Shown one piece after another: positions 2,382 to 45,134 of a DNA stretch of 64,000 bases. The notes beneath the pieces are model-generated. The model was given only the letters and a program-made list of their open reading frames with translations. It had not been told where the DNA came from and made no database searches. Within the stretch, counting starts at the first letter, position 1; each line of letters opens with the position of its first letter. Location: sequence record MK373778.1; one strand, 5' to 3'. Source of the stretch: Escherichia phage vB_EcoM_WFbE185. The translations under genes and the position numbers were made by a program.

Positions 2382-4707
<2,326 letters not shown>

Positions 4708-4734
4708 AAATAAAGCAAATTAAGAGGAATTAAA

Positions 4735-6717
4735 ATGTCACTTCTCTCTCCGGGCGTTGAGCTCAAAGAAACTACCGTACAGAGTACTGTAGTTAATAAC
4801 TCCACTGGTACTGCTGCCCTGGCTGGAAAATTCCAATGGGGACCTGCATTCCAGATTAAACAAATCACTGATGAAGTTGCATTAGTTGATATGTTTGGTA
4901 CTCCTAATACGGATACAGCAGATTATTTCATGTCTGCTATGAACTTCCTTCAATATGGTAATGACCTTCGTGTTGTACGCGCAGTTGACCGTGATACTGC
5001 TAAGAACTCATCTCCTGTAGCAGGCAATATTGAATTCACAATCTCTGCTGCTGGTAGTAACTATGCAGTTGGTGATAAAATTATCGTTAAGTATTTGACC
5101 GAAACTGTTGAAGCAGATGGTTATGTCACTTCGGTTGATGTCGATGGTAAAATTCTTAACATTTATATCCCAACCGGTAAAATTATTGCTCGTGCAAAAG
5201 AAATTAATGAATATCCGGCATTGGGTTCTAACTGGACCGCCGAAGTTGCCAGTTCTTCTTCTGGTCTCTCTGGCGTTATTACAATTGGTTCTATCGTAAC
5301 CGATTCGGGTATTCTGTTAACTGAAGTTGAAACTTCTGAAGAAGCTATTACTTCTCTAACTTTCCAAGAATCTATTAAAAAATATGGTGTCCCAGGTGTA
5401 GTTGCTCTTTATCCTGGTGAACTTGGCGACCAGCTCGAAATTGAAATCGTATCTAAAGCGGACTATGACAAAGGTGCTTCAGCCCAGTTAAAAATTTATC
5501 CTGATGGTGGTACTCGTGCATCTACTGCTAAAGCAATCTTTGGGTATGGCCCACAAACTGATGACCAATATGCAATTATCGTTCGTCGTAACGATGCTGT
5601 AGTTCAGAGCGTAATTCTTTCTACTAAACGCGGTGAACGCGATATTTATGGTAGTAATATCTTTATTGATGATTTCTTTGCTAAAGGCGCAAGCAATTAT
5701 ATTTTCGCTACTGCACAAGGTTGGCCAAAAGGTTTCTCTGGCGTAATCAAACTGGGTGGTGGCTTATCATCCAATGAAACGGTTGACGCTGGTGATTTAA
5801 TGGAAGCTTGGGATTTGTTTGCCGACCGCGAATCTGTTAATGCGCAGTTGTTTATTGCCGGTTCTTGTGCAGGTGAATCTTTAGAAGTTGCTTCTACAGT
5901 TCAGAAACATGTTGTAGCAATTGGTGATTCTCGCCAAGATTGCTTGGTTCTTTGCTCACCGCCACGTGCAACTATAGTTGGTATTCCTGTTAATCGTGCA
6001 GTTGATAATCTGGTTGATTGGCGTACTGCGTCAGGAACTTACACTGATAATAACTTTAATGTAAGTTCTACTTACGCGGCTATTGACGGTAACTATAAAT
6101 ATCAATATGACAAATATAATGATGTGAATCGTTGGGTTCCATTAGCTGCTGATATTGCTGGTCTTTGTGCTCGCACAGACAATATTTCTCAGCCTTGGAT
6201 GTCTCCTGCTGGTTATAACCGTGGACAAATTCTTAACGTTATTAAGCTTGCAATTGAAACTCGTCAACCACAGCGTGATCGTTTGTATCAGGAAGCTATT
6301 AACCCTGTTACTGGTACCGGTGGTGATGGGTATGTTCTGTACGGTGATAAAACTGCCACTTCTGTTCCTTCACCATTTGACCGTATTAACGTTCGTCGTT
6401 TGTTCAATATGGTTAAAACGAACATTGGTTCAGCATCCAAATATCGCCTGTTTGAATTGAACAACGCATTCACCCGTTCTTCTTTCCGTACAGAGACTTC
6501 TCAATATCTACAGGGTATTAAAGCTCTCGGTGGTGTATATAACTTTAAAGTTGTTTGTGATACTACCAATAACACCCCAGCAGTTATCGACCGTAATGAA
6601 TTTGTAGCTACTTTCTACTTACAACCTGCCCGCTCGATAAATTATATTACGTTGAACTTTGTAGCAACAGCAACTGGTGCCGATTTCGACGAACTAATTG
6701 GTGCTGTAGGTGGCTAA
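4735..6717 (+). CDS. 18: tail sheath protein gp18
   Basis: 660 aa; N-terminus MSLLSPGVELKETTVQSTVVNNSTGTAALAGKFQWGPAFQIKQ near-identical to recalled T4 gp18; SD AAGAGGA. Confidence 0.95.
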   Translation: MSLLSPGVELKETTVQSTVVNNSTGTAALAGKFQWGPAFQIKQITDEVALVDMFGTPNTDTADYFMSAMNFLQYGNDLRVVRAVDRDTAKNSSPVAGNIEFTISAAGSNYAVGDKIIVKYLTETVEADGYVTSVDVDGKILNIYIPTGKIIARAKEINEYPALGSNWTAEVASSSSGLSGVITIGSIVTDSGILLTEVETSEEAITSLTFQESIKKYGVPGVVALYPGELGDQLEIEIVSKADYDKGASAQLKIYPDGGTRASTAKAIFGYGPQTDDQYAIIVRRNDAVVQSVILSTKRGERDIYGSNIFIDDFFAKGASNYIFATAQGWPKGFSGVIKLGGGLSSNETVDAGDLMEAWDLFADRESVNAQLFIAGSCAGESLEVASTVQKHVVAIGDSRQDCLVLCSPPRATIVGIPVNRAVDNLVDWRTASGTYTDNNFNVSSTYAAIDGNYKYQYDKYNDVNRWVPLAADIAGLCARTDNISQPWMSPAGYNRGQILNVIKLAIETRQPQRDRLYQEAINPVTGTGGDGYVLYGDKTATSVPSPFDRINVRRLFNMVKTNIGSASKYRLFELNNAFTRSSFRTETSQYLQGIKALGGVYNFKVVCDTTNNTPAVIDRNEFVATFYLQPARSINYITLNFVATATGADFDELIGAVGG

Positions 6718-11136: not shown

Positions 11137-12705
11137 ATGACTACTATCAAAACTAAAGCTCAGCTCGTAGACAAATGGAAAGAACTGCTGGAAGGTGAAG
11201 GCCTGCCGGAAATCGCTAATAGCAAGCAGGCTATTATCGCTAAAATCTTCGAAAACCAGGAAAAAGATTTCGAAGTATCCCCTGAATATAAAGACGAGAA
11301 AATCGCTCAGGCATTTGGTTCTTTCTTGACCGAAGCTGAAATTGGTGGTGACCATGGTTATAATGCTCAGAACATCGCAGCAGGTCAAACCTCTGGTGCA
11401 GTAACCCAAATTGGGCCGGCAGTTATGGGTATGGTTCGTCGTGCTATTCCTAATCTGATCGCTTTTGATATTTGTGGTGTTCAGCCTATGAACAGCCCTA
11501 CCGGTCAGGTATTTGCTCTCCGTGCAGTATATGGTAAAGACCCTATCGCTGCTGGCGCTAAAGAAGCTTTCCATCCGATGTATGCCCCAGACGCGATGTT
11601 CTCTGGTCAGGGTGCTGCTAAGAAATTCCCAGCTCTGGCTGCTGACACTACTACTGTTGTAGGTGATATCTATACTCACTTCTTCCAAGAAACTGGTACT
11701 GTATATCTGCAAGCTTCTGCTGTCGTAACACTTGATTCTGGTGCAACTGATGCAGCTAAATTAGATGCAGAAGTTAAGAAACAAATGGAAGCTGGTGCAC
11801 TGGTAGAAATCGCTGAAGGTATGGCTACTTCTATCGCTGAACTTCAGGAAGGTTTCAACGGTTCTACCGATAACCCATGGAATGAAATGGGCTTCCGTAT
11901 CGATAAACAAGTTATCGAAGCTAAATCTCGCCAGCTGAAAGCTGCTTACTCTATCGAATTAGCACAAGACCTCCGTGCAGTACACGGTATGGATGCTGAT
12001 GCTGAACTGAGCGGTATTCTGGCTACAGAAATTATGCTAGAAATCAACCGTGAAGTTGTTGATTGGATTAACTACTCAGCACAGGTTGGTAAATCTGGTA
12101 TGACCCTGACTCCTGGTTCTAAAGCTGGTGTATTTGACTTCCAGGACCCGATTGATATCCGTGGTGCTCGTTGGGCCGGTGAAAGCTTTAAATCTCTGTT
12201 GTTCCAGATTGATAAAGAAGCAGTTGAAATTGCTCGTCAAACCGGACGTGGTGAAGGTAACTTCATTATCGCTTCCCGTAACGTAGTTAACGTACTGGCT
12301 TCAGTTGATACTGGTATTTCTTACGCTGCACAGGGTCTGGCTTCTGGTTTTAATACCGACACTACTAAGTCTGTATTTGCCGGTGTACTTGGTGGTAAAT
12401 ACCGCGTATACATCGACCAGTATGCTAAACAGGATTACTTCACCGTTGGTTACAAAGGTGCTAACGAAATGGATGCAGGTATTTACTATGCTCCTTACGT
12501 TGCACTTACCCCACTGCGTGGTTCCGATCCTAAGAACTTCCAGCCGGTAATGGGCTTTAAAACTCGTTACGGTATCGGTGTTAACCCGTTTGCTGAAAGT
12601 TCCCTGCAGGCTCCAGGTGCTCGCATCCAGTCCGGTATGCCGTCTATCCTGAACAGCCTTGGTAAGAACGCTTACTTCCGCCGTGTATATGTAAAAGGCA
12701 TCTAA
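11137..12705 (+). CDS. 23: major capsid protein gp23
   Basis: 522 aa, near-identical to recalled T4 gp23 over most of its length. Confidence 0.97.
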   Translation: MTTIKTKAQLVDKWKELLEGEGLPEIANSKQAIIAKIFENQEKDFEVSPEYKDEKIAQAFGSFLTEAEIGGDHGYNAQNIAAGQTSGAVTQIGPAVMGMVRRAIPNLIAFDICGVQPMNSPTGQVFALRAVYGKDPIAAGAKEAFHPMYAPDAMFSGQGAAKKFPALAADTTTVVGDIYTHFFQETGTVYLQASAVVTLDSGATDAAKLDAEVKKQMEAGALVEIAEGMATSIAELQEGFNGSTDNPWNEMGFRIDKQVIEAKSRQLKAAYSIELAQDLRAVHGMDADAELSGILATEIMLEINREVVDWINYSAQVGKSGMTLTPGSKAGVFDFQDPIDIRGARWAGESFKSLLFQIDKEAVEIARQTGRGEGNFIIASRNVVNVLASVDTGISYAAQGLASGFNTDTTKSVFAGVLGGKYRVYIDQYAKQDYFTVGYKGANEMDAGIYYAPYVALTPLRGSDPKNFQPVMGFKTRYGIGVNPFAESSLQAPGARIQSGMPSILNSLGKNAYFRRVYVKGI

Positions 12706-12729
12706 TCTTAATTGATTAAATCTTATTTT

Positions 12730-12747
12730 GGGAGACTTCGGTCTCCC
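12730..12747 (+). terminator. intrinsic terminator after gene 23
   Basis: GGGAGAC-TTCG-GTCTCCC followed by ATTTTTGG. Confidence 0.75.
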
Positions 12748-12757
12748 ATTTTTGGTT

Positions 12758-13027
12758 TTATTTCTGTGCAATTTTGATGTAAGTTTTCAAAATATTTTGC
12801 CAATTAGGCATACCTTCTTGGACATATGCCGGAGAACCATCTTTGTTTTTGAATGATGCAAGTTTATCAGTGGCCCAATAACCTTTAGCTCGAGCTTCAG
12901 AATCAACTTTCATCCATACTTTGTTGAAGGCATTACCATTAACTTTTGCACCATATTTTTCTACTAACTTAACTGCTTCAGCTTCCAGAACTTTTAAAGT
13001 ATCTCGTAAGAAACGTGCTTTAGTCAT
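12758..13027 (-). CDS. hypothetical protein, antisense to the capsid cluster
   Basis: 89-aa ORF with SD AGGAG 7 nt upstream and its own early promoter; no recognised domain. Confidence 0.5.
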   Translation of the reverse strand: MTKARFLRDTLKVLEAEAVKLVEKYGAKVNGNAFNKVWMKVDSEARAKGYWATDKLASFKNKDGSPAYVQEGMPNWQNILKTYIKIAQK

Positions 13028-13057
13028 TTTGTTTACTCCTCTGTAGTTGATAAGTCT

Positions 13058-13087
13058 ATAGTATCACATATCAAATACGTTGTAAAC
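13058..13087 (-). promoter_or_regulatory. T4-type early promoter (GTTTAC-N18-TACTAT)
   Basis: Minus strand GTTTAC ... TGTGATACTATAGAC; drives the ORF at 12758-13027. Confidence 0.55.
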
Positions 13088-13093
13088 AATCTT

Positions 13094-13101
13094 TATAAAT
13101 A
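13094..13101 (+). promoter_or_regulatory. late promoter (TATAAATA) for gene 24
   Basis: Exact TATAAATA 27 nt upstream of the ATG. Confidence 0.6.
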
Positions 13102-13128
13102 ATCTATATCACATAAGGAAAAAATGCA

Positions 13129-14412
13129 ATGAGTAAAATCCAAAAATTATTGCGTGAATCTACAACGTCTACTAGCAACTCAATTGGTCGCCCAAATCTC
13201 GTTGCTTTGACTCGCGCTACGACTAAATTAATATATTCTGACATTGTAGCAACACAAAGAACTAATCAACCTGTTGCTGCTTTTTATGGTATCAAATATC
13301 TTAACCCAGATAACGAATTCACATTTAAAACCGGTGCTACTTATGCTGGCGAAGTTGGATATGTAGACCGAGAAAAAATTACCGAGCTCACAGAAGAATC
13401 AAAAGTCACACTAAATAAAGGCGATTTTTTCAAATATAATAATATCGTTTATAAAGTATTAGAAGATACACCGTTTGCAGATATTCAGGAAAGTGATCTA
13501 GAATTAGCTCTTCAGATTGCGGTCGTTCATTTAAAGGTACGGTTGTTTTCAGATGCAGCGGTAACAAGCAAATTTGAAAGCTCTGGTAGCGAAATTTCTG
13601 ATGCAAGATTCCAGATTAATAAATGGCAAACCGCTGTTAAATCTCGTAAACTTAAAACTGGCCTAACGGTTGAATTAGCGCAAGATTTGGAAGCGAATGG
13701 ATTTGATGCCCCTAACTTCTTAGAAGATTTACTTGCTACTGAAATGGCTGATGAAATTAATAAAGATATTCTTCAGTCTTTAATTACTGTATCGAAACGT
13801 TATAAAGTTACTGGAATTACTGACACCGGATTTATTGACTTGAGCTATGCGTCTGCTCCAGAAGCAGGTCGTTCATTATATCGAATGGTGTGTGAAATGG
13901 TATCACACATTCAAAAAGAGTCAACTTATACCGCAACGTTTTGCGTAGCTTCAGCTCGTGCAGCCGCTATTCTTGCTGCTTCAGGTTGGTTAAAACATAA
14001 GCCGGAAGATGATAAGTATCTTTCACAAAATGCTTATGGATTCTTGGCAAATGGATTACCTCTTTACTGCGATACTAACAGCCCGTTAGATTATGTTATT
14101 GTGGGTGTTGTAGAAAATATCGGCGAAAAAGAAATTGTAGGGTCCATCTTTTATGCTCCATACACTGAAGGAGTAGATTTAGATGACCCGGAACATGTTG
14201 GTGCATTTAAAGTTGTAGTTGATCCAGAAAGCTTGCAACCGTCTATCGGATTATTGGTTAGATATGCTTTATCAGCAAATCCTTACACAGTAGCAAAAGA
14301 CGAAAAAGAAGCGAGAATAATTGATGGTGGGGACATGGATAAAATGGCAGGACGTTCAGACTTGTCTGTTTTACTCGGTGTTAAATTGCCTAAAATTATT
14401 ATAGATGAATAA
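13129..14412 (+). CDS. 24: capsid vertex protein gp24
   Basis: 427 aa, gp23 paralog; late promoter upstream. Confidence 0.95.
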   Translation: MSKIQKLLRESTTSTSNSIGRPNLVALTRATTKLIYSDIVATQRTNQPVAAFYGIKYLNPDNEFTFKTGATYAGEVGYVDREKITELTEESKVTLNKGDFFKYNNIVYKVLEDTPFADIQESDLELALQIAVVHLKVRLFSDAAVTSKFESSGSEISDARFQINKWQTAVKSRKLKTGLTVELAQDLEANGFDAPNFLEDLLATEMADEINKDILQSLITVSKRYKVTGITDTGFIDLSYASAPEAGRSLYRMVCEMVSHIQKESTYTATFCVASARAAAILAASGWLKHKPEDDKYLSQNAYGFLANGLPLYCDTNSPLDYVIVGVVENIGEKEIVGSIFYAPYTEGVDLDDPEHVGAFKVVVDPESLQPSIGLLVRYALSANPYTVAKDEKEARIIDGGDMDKMAGRSDLSVLLGVKLPKIIIDE

Positions 14413-15813: not shown

Positions 15814-16010
15814 TTCTTCACCTTTTTGTTAATCAAACGTTTACGGTATACAACTTTTTCTTTTGCTTTAAACTTTGACCGAGCTGTCTCGGCTTTAGTC
15901 CATAGTAATCCAACTTCTTTAGGTTGTAAACCGATTTTTTGAGCAATTTCTACGAATGAAAATCCCGCCTCATGTAATGTATAAACTTCAACTTCAGCTC
16001 TCATAATCAA
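15810..16010 (-). CDS. hypothetical protein with possible helix-turn-helix (T4 24.3 position)
   Basis: 66-aa ORF; GFSFVEIAQKIGLQPKEV resembles an HTH; basic tail. Confidence 0.45.
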   Translation of the reverse strand: MIMRAEVEVYTLHEAGFSFVEIAQKIGLQPKEVGLLWTKAETARSKFKAKEKVVYRKRLINKKVKK

Positions 16011-28681: not shown

Positions 28682-28711
28682 ATAGTATCACACATCCATG
28701 TGTTTGTAAAC
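28682..28711 (-). promoter_or_regulatory. T4-type early promoter
   Basis: Minus strand GTTTAC-N18-TACTAT; the -35 overlaps the alt stop codon. Confidence 0.55.
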
Positions 28712-39626: not shown

Positions 39627-39656
39627 ATAGTATCACAACTCTACCATGTTGTAAAC
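39627..39656 (-). promoter_or_regulatory. T4-type early promoter with flanking inverted repeat
   Basis: Minus strand GTTTAC-N18-TACTAT; 9-bp arms at 39618-39626 and 39638-39646. Confidence 0.55.
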
Positions 39657-42515: not shown

Positions 42516-42545
42516 ATTATACTCTGCTCCCGAGAGTTTGTAAAC
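42516..42545 (-). promoter_or_regulatory. T4-type early promoter
   Basis: Minus strand GTTTAC-N18-TATAAT; short inverted repeat GGAGCA / TGCTCC around the -10. Confidence 0.55.
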
Positions 42546-43920: not shown

Positions 43921-43950
43921 ATAGTATCACCATCCTTGGTGTTTGTAAAC
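43921..43950 (-). promoter_or_regulatory. T4-type early promoter for alc
   Basis: Minus strand GTTTAC-N18-GGTGATACTAT, then SD GAGGAG. Confidence 0.55.
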
Positions 43951-45086: not shown

Positions 45087-45104
45087 TCAGTTAGTTTTTT
45101 TAAA

Positions 45105-45134
45105 TTGTACCACAATCCTTGTGGTATGTAAACT
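45105..45134 (-). promoter_or_regulatory. T4-type early promoter for rnlA
   Basis: Minus strand GTTTAC-N18-TACAAT; the -35 overlaps the denA stop. Confidence 0.5.

Follow-up and report, generated by a model that had tools for sequence, protein, structure and literature searches.

The segment 12761-13093 of the window (the whole stretch of DNA analysed here, 64,000 nt of Escherichia phage vB_EcoM_WFbE185, record MK373778.1) is probably, with a likelihood of about three in four, a self-contained and exchangeable single-gene early unit which codes for a dispensable accessory protein and resides in a variable slot between the capsid genes 23 and 24. An 89-aa ORF had been predicted on the minus strand between these two genes, and it is present there, starting with ATG. 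The features of the locus are the following:

11137-12705, plus strand: gene 23 (major capsid protein), a 522-aa ORF annotated so in PhAPEC2 and other Mosigvirus records
12729-12759, strand left unassigned: gene 23 terminator, the hairpin GGGAGAC-TTCG-GTCTCCC (12729-12748) followed by a T-run on the plus strand, supported by a terminator scan
12758-13027, minus strand: the 89-aa ORF (RB69ORF188c homolog, phrog_6003), based on the ORF list, a profile match and the PhAPEC2 annotation
13036-13041, minus strand: Shine-Dalgarno sequence GAGGAG, 8 nt before the ATG of the 89-aa ORF
13058-13086, minus strand: T4-type early (sigma-70) promoter, based on motif, conservation and the prediction made in RB69
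13094-13101, plus strand: gene 24 late promoter, an exact match to TATAAATA, 27 nt before the gene 24 ATG
13129-14412, plus strand: gene 24 (capsid vertex protein), the right flank of the slot, a 427-aa ORF identified by annotation

The phage of the window is an RB69-like (Mosigvirus) T4-type phage. A 651-bp query over the ORF region showed 99.7% identity to E. coli O157 typing phages 3, 6 and 13 and 99.2-99.5% to the remaining listed records with full coverage of the query, all of them from Escherichia or Shigella phages and several from named Mosigvirus members, e.g., PhAPEC2, in which the ORF is annotated as "hypothetical protein, similar to RB69ORF188c." The gene order is T4-like (20, 67, 68, 21, 22, 23, ORF, 24, rnlB, 24.2, 24.3, hoc, inh), with gene 23 forming the left flank of the slot and convergent with the ORF. 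A two-codon mini-ORF (ATG CAA TGA, 13124-13132) overlaps the gene 24 start codon (ATGCAATGAGT) and is probably insignificant. The window contains one copy of gene 24; two tandem paralogs of this vertex gene were observed in Dhakavirus JS10 (locus L006), Gaprivervirus VR7 (L007) and Gelderlandvirus S16 (L015), as well as in related metagenomic phages (L004, L010).

Comparison of the intergenic slot across T4-like phages, which had been proposed along with the original prediction, revealed a variable site with four main states (empty, promoter-segD, promoter-ORF and promoter-ORF-segD) and an ORF kept in three genera. The empty form occurs in seven phages, Tequatrovirus RB10, MLF4 and LYE-01, Karamvirus PG7, a Jiaodavirus, Gelderlandvirus S16 and Acinetobacter phage Henu6, in which the gene 23 stop codon is followed by the hairpin, the T-run, about 10 nt, the late promoter box and gene 24. 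These phages keep the terminator and the late promoter and have no early promoter; their late box is TATAAATA, with GATAAATA in PG7 and no exact TATAAATA in Henu6. The promoter-segD state is represented by T4 and PST (53 records), and the seg gene that the original prediction placed near this site in T4 is indeed segD, which lies between genes 23 and 24 and is encoded on the minus strand. The window, JS10 and VR7 display the promoter-ORF state, and the promoter-ORF-segD state is found in LF82-7, 04086, IME08 and ATK48 (38 records). In the latter, segD begins 3 nt past the ORF stop codon and codes for a homolog with 57% identity to T4 SegD; the two genes stand under one promoter and are apparently translationally coupled. 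More distant T4-like phages, Krischvirus pEJ01 (positions 1376-1698 of locus L017) and Aeromonas phage 31 (positions 625-1789 of L018), hold unrelated ORFs in the slot, on the capsid-gene strand, suggesting that the 23/24 site is a general insertion hotspot.

Some observations on the annotation of segD and its surroundings emerged from this comparison. In phage 04086 (L008) a complete SegD homolog at 2771-3440 was left unannotated, and gene 23 seems to be annotated in truncated or split form (3502-4611, with an ORF on the other strand at 4633-5046). The annotated start of T4 SegD (MFKMKYLIY; L003 3233-3222) precedes by three codons the start that the homologs of LF82-7 and 04086 support (MNYLIY; starting at position 2771 of both L027 and L008); the real start of T4 SegD may be the second ATG.

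The exchange of cassettes is best illustrated by LF82-7, which possesses Mosigvirus flanks 95-98% identical to the window but carries a JS10-type ORF plus segD inside them. The alignments between LF82-7 and the window stop at 13036, in the Shine-Dalgarno sequence, and resume at 12761, at the ORF stop codon and hairpin; relative to the empty form, the cassette corresponds to 12761-13093. RB69-type and JS98/JS10-type alleles, which share about 33% identity, occupy one and the same slot. The cassette is an ordinary swappable accessory unit that is optional in the slot, and its swaps break exactly at the conserved Shine-Dalgarno/promoter region on one side and at the hairpin on the other.

A more far-reaching and rather doubtful proposal regards the slot as a "docking site" equipped with a promoter, in which the conserved flanks act as recombination handles for the exchange of whole coding cassettes between T-even genera, with or without the help of SegD; the phrog_6003 protein would then be a partner of SegD or a new early factor of host takeover or anti-defence, with a small, previously undescribed fold. 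If this were true, one handle would be formed by the back-to-back late/early promoter and the Shine-Dalgarno sequence, and the other by the bidirectional hairpin.

The association with segD also raises the question of whether the protein assists or opposes SegD, e.g., as an immunity, helper or regulatory partner, and persisted after loss of segD. The tandem arrangement in the 38 records, with its shared promoter and apparent translational coupling, and the joint transfer of ORF and segD into a Mosigvirus background in LF82-7 are in line with this notion. However, T4 and PST carry segD without the ORF, about 200 of the 240 carriers have the ORF without segD, and no endonuclease adjoins the family members in rV5-like and siphovirus-like contigs. 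Moreover, adjacency would be expected anyway if a homing endonuclease gene landed in a promoter-equipped intergenic slot, and the two proteins are unrelated in sequence (hhalign against T4 SegD, probability 2%). Considering that each gene occurs widely without the other and that they lack similarity, a link with SegD is possible and not required, and we regard a partnership as improbable.

The accessory unit can be compared with three systems described previously. It resembles the T4 segD unit in slot, antisense orientation, homologous back-to-back early and late promoters and terminator hairpin; in contrast to this free-standing GIY-YIG endonuclease, the window cargo is unrelated and lacks GIY-YIG, and some phages carry both in tandem. 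The PeSL mobile cassettes (Arbiol et al., 2010, PMC2839356; Comeau et al., 2014, PMC4122927) share with it an exact match to the promoter consensus, an ORFan bounded by conserved regulatory motifs and exchange breakpoints located at these motifs. They differ in that the stem-loop of the window follows the ORF on its 3' side, where it serves the convergent gene 23 as terminator, instead of being fused upstream of the promoter; the place immediately 5' of the promoter, where a PeSL has its stem-loop, is taken by the gene 24 late promoter. In addition, PeSLs are said to be rare in the structural gene block, and the window site lies inside this block. Lambdoid "morons" are likewise autonomous promoter-gene-hairpin units placed between two conserved genes and absent from relatives, but the GC content of the cassette (34.8%) is close to that of the genome (37.9%), the phage of the window is virulent, and expression would be early-lytic and not from a prophage.

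An early promoter had been predicted on the minus strand and was located at that site. It consists of a -35 element TTTACA (13086-13081), a 17-nt spacer ending in TGA (extended -10 TG) and a -10 element TACTAT (13063-13058), which would place the transcription start near 13051 (minus strand) and produce a leader of 24 nt. A generic sigma-70 scan was not significant (13 sites vs 12.9 expected from shuffled sequence, over 5 kb). The phage-specific motif TTTACW-N17-TAYWAT, the early promoter (PeSL) consensus of PST and T4 (Comeau et al., 2014), gave seven exact matches in the window vs 0.22 expected, all on the minus strand, which represents an enrichment of about 30-fold. The six other matches were found at 15902-15930, 28682-28710, 39627-39655, 42516-42544, 43921-43949 and 45104-45132, and the ending TGATACTAT is common to four of the seven (the ORF promoter and three others).

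This layout is preserved in divergent relatives. The gene 24 late promoter, which reads TATTTATA as its reverse complement, is followed in 10 of 11 divergent loci by 6-7 nt, TTTACA, a 17-nt spacer with TGT or TGA as its last three letters, and TAYTAT; the -35 element of one locus is TGTACA instead of TTTACA, VR7 shows the variant TTTACA-17-CATAAT, and a GGAG in the leader is conserved in all 11. Thus the promoter elements are kept while the spacer sequences differ freely. The same back-to-back module, counted among these 10, lies directly upstream of segD in T4 and PST. Immediately before segD, T4 (NC_000866 106561-107323, minus strand; L003) and PST contain TTTACA-17(..TGA)-TATTAT, homologous to the early promoter of the window. 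The site therefore displays the features of a T4-type early promoter, i.e., agreement with the consensus, location on the minus (early-gene) strand close to a Shine-Dalgarno sequence and start codon, and conservation in relatives. No MotA box (TGCTT) is present in the sequence upstream of the ORF, indicating that this is not a middle promoter. According to a review from 2010, no segD-specific promoter could be found and the segD transcript was possibly vanishingly low; in a time-resolved omics study of T4 (2022) segD RNA was classed as early and SegD protein was detected. We infer the early timing of the ORF unit from the motif, its conservation and this early class of T4 segD RNA.

On the opposite strand, TATAAATA lies ahead of the late gene 24, as expected for a T4 late promoter, and is conserved in occupied as well as in empty slots; the late start would be near 13107 (plus strand). 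The two promoters had been described as head-to-head and 6 bp apart. The spacing is correct if the G of GTTTACA is counted (it is 7 nt from TATAAATA to the -35 hexamer), but the wording is not, as the promoters are divergent (back-to-back) and it is with gene 23 that the ORF converges. Being divergent, the early and late transcripts do not collide.

Such proximity could nevertheless be taken to mean that the region is a regulatory device in which the early promoter or its transcript controls expression of the late capsid genes, either because the gene 24 late promoter stays occluded for as long as early transcription lasts or through a transcript antisense to the 3' end of gene 23, routes that are both physically possible. 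With starts near 13051 and 13107, TATAAATA would occupy positions of about -43 to -50 relative to the early start, and the early -35 element positions of about -21 to -26 relative to the late start, so the footprints overlap and two polymerases cannot occupy the site together; the tight spacing is conserved in 10 of the 11 loci, and read-through antisense to gene 23 is plausible since the minus-strand RNA of the hairpin has no U-run. Against such control, the empty-slot phages keep terminator and late promoter without any early promoter, so the cassette is not needed for gene 24 expression or capsid timing. Furthermore, the cargo behind the promoter varies (segD, the ORF or both), selection acts on the ORF at the protein level (see below), and the divergent promoters belong to different temporal classes. 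In T4, early sigma-70 promoters have already been silenced by the time gp55-dependent late transcription sets in. The overlap of the footprints makes a minor mutual exclusion of the two promoters physically possible. Altogether, the suggestion that the early gene interferes with or times late transcription of the capsid genes finds no support in these data, and a regulatory function of this kind seems hardly probable.

The gene 23 terminator, toward which the ORF transcript was predicted to run, is located directly 3' of the ORF stop codon, with the ORF convergent with gene 23, and it constitutes the 3' boundary of the cassette. The hairpin forms on both strands, with folding energies of -16.1 kcal/mol (z -4.3) on the plus strand and -18.2 kcal/mol (z -6.7) on the minus strand; a U-run exists only on the gene 23 strand. 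The stem is kept by compensatory changes (GGGAGAC/GTCTCCC, GGGAACC/GGTTCCC, GGGACC/GGTCCC, GGGAGCC/GGCTCCC), as seen in T4, RB10, PG7, the Jiaodavirus, S16 and VR7. An Rfam search of the region returned nothing near threshold.

Several lines of evidence indicate that the 89-aa ORF is a genuine protein-coding gene. As judged by the Nei-Gojobori method on unsaturated homolog pairs, dN/dS ranges from 0.04 to 0.13, evidencing strong purifying selection, and from this comparative standpoint the protein is shown to be functional. Because the selection operates at the protein level, the function of the ORF would reside in the protein rather than being purely transcriptional. Conservation in frame among relatives, which the original prediction took as decisive, was confirmed: homologs at 33-99% identity have an intact frame and keep their length (at levels of 98%, 70%, 61% and 31-36%), and those at 31-36% maintain length, frame and position in three genera. 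Most Mosigvirus records contain an ortholog 97-100% identical with slot and orientation unchanged, and the ORF was found in the matching slot and orientation in Dhakavirus JS10 and 04086, in Gaprivervirus VR7 and in metagenomic T4-like contigs. By tblastn the ORF family was detected in 240 phage records, about half of RB69-type and about half of JS98/VR7-type; for comparison, gp24 was detected in 1411. The isolates mogra and 310Ecol104PP carry copies that are frameshifted or truncated. An accidental antisense frame with a fortuitous promoter match, to which the outcome of the generic sigma-70 scan and the lack of a Pfam domain might point, would leave unaccounted for the low dN/dS, the preservation of length, frame and position down to 31-36% identity, the confident structure model, the strong Shine-Dalgarno sequence and the conserved and enriched promoter motif, and can be considered already refuted by the comparative data.

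The 89-aa protein has a mass of 10.1 kDa and is basic (pI 9.8), as are the T4-type members of its family (9.5-9.8); a pI of 8.0 was computed for a single non-T4 member (from L009). It matched phrog_6003 over its full length (E 2.9e-45, residues 1-89 vs profile positions 1-90 of 90), which places it in the phrog_6003/RB69ORF188c family. This is a small, phage-only family of about 27 clusters in all, the distant members of which match the profile too. These distant members are found among small ORFs in Acinetobacter phage ABPH49 (Vequintavirinae), inside long same-strand arrays of small ORFs in 140-kb contigs related to ABPH49 and, in one case, adjoining tail genes in a siphovirus-like contig; such small-ORF surroundings, which the family has in rV5-like and other virulent phages, are the typical company of early accessory genes. 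A 90-aa family member, P0006 (contig ERZ27245996 k123_278436), bears the JGI name "NADPH-dependent curcumin reductase CurA," a clear mislabel. An AlphaFold2 model of the 89-aa protein (pLDDT 87.9) confidently predicts a fold of two helices, a beta-hairpin and a third helix.

Searches of Pfam, NCBIfam, PADLOC, PDB and BFVD produced no informative structural or family match for the protein. Pfam returned neither a family nor a nuclease match; a DUF4859 match (E 0.0029, below the gathering threshold) was treated as noise because only 3 of 15 family members reproduced it. NCBIfam gave no match, and the curated defence-system models of PADLOC gave none for the window protein and only noise for its relatives. 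The sequence profile search of PDB yielded nothing below E 0.05 and the Foldseek comparison with PDB nothing below E 0.39, the scattered winged-helix domains in the latter (probability below 0.2) being unusable; the sole Foldseek match in BFVD was a family member. Two large proteins retrieved by an exhaustive profile search, P0022 (with Big_2/LRR repeats) and the repeat protein P0024, were rejected, since their scores are the sum of 8-11 weak repeat matches and all-beta Ig-like structures are incompatible with the helical model. The statement that the ORF lacks nuclease motifs is borne out by the Pfam result and the comparison with SegD, and neither a catalytic domain nor SegD similarity of the kind that defines a Seg-type GIY-YIG homing endonuclease was found in it.

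The gene was already catalogued and annotated. RB69ORF188c (NP_861878) and its orthologs PhAPEC2_170, EpJS10_0170 of JS10 and VR7ORF190c represent the same gene, with nothing materially different. The promoters and the terminator are also on record, as they were predicted in RB69 in the supplements of Nolan et al. (2006), which list an early promoter (Pe:109605, HMM score 29.9), a late promoter (Pl:109573) and a TransTerm terminator "23-><-RB69ORF188c." A literature search found no mention of RB69ORF188c by name and no Mosigvirus transcriptome.

Based on the available evidence, a course of events can be proposed for the single-gene early unit. Host sigma-70 RNA polymerase would start at the minus-strand promoter in the first minutes of infection and produce an mRNA of about 320 nt with a strong Shine-Dalgarno sequence, from which the basic 89-aa protein would be translated. 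This transcript would meet the gene 23 hairpin from the wrong side, and, as no U-run is present there, the hairpin probably stabilises its 3' end or allows some RNA to read on antisense to gene 23. The early promoter, basic charge, small size and genomic company suggest that the protein most likely acts as an early accessory factor, dispensable to the phage, with a host component or nucleic acid as its binding target, although the retention of the family in about 240 phage records indicates that it may matter more than the term "dispensable accessory" implies.

Since the cassette is optional, it has little weight for capsid gene regulation. It offers a clean example of T-even phages exchanging accessory genes at fixed sites, with breakpoints at regulatory motifs, in a structural block that is otherwise conserved. 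The promoter that precedes T4 segD, missed by the 2010 review, is a conserved early-type promoter shared with the RB69ORF188c cassettes, in agreement with the later omics classification of segD RNA as early. The phrog_6003 family is a candidate for a host-takeover or anti-defence function in these phages.
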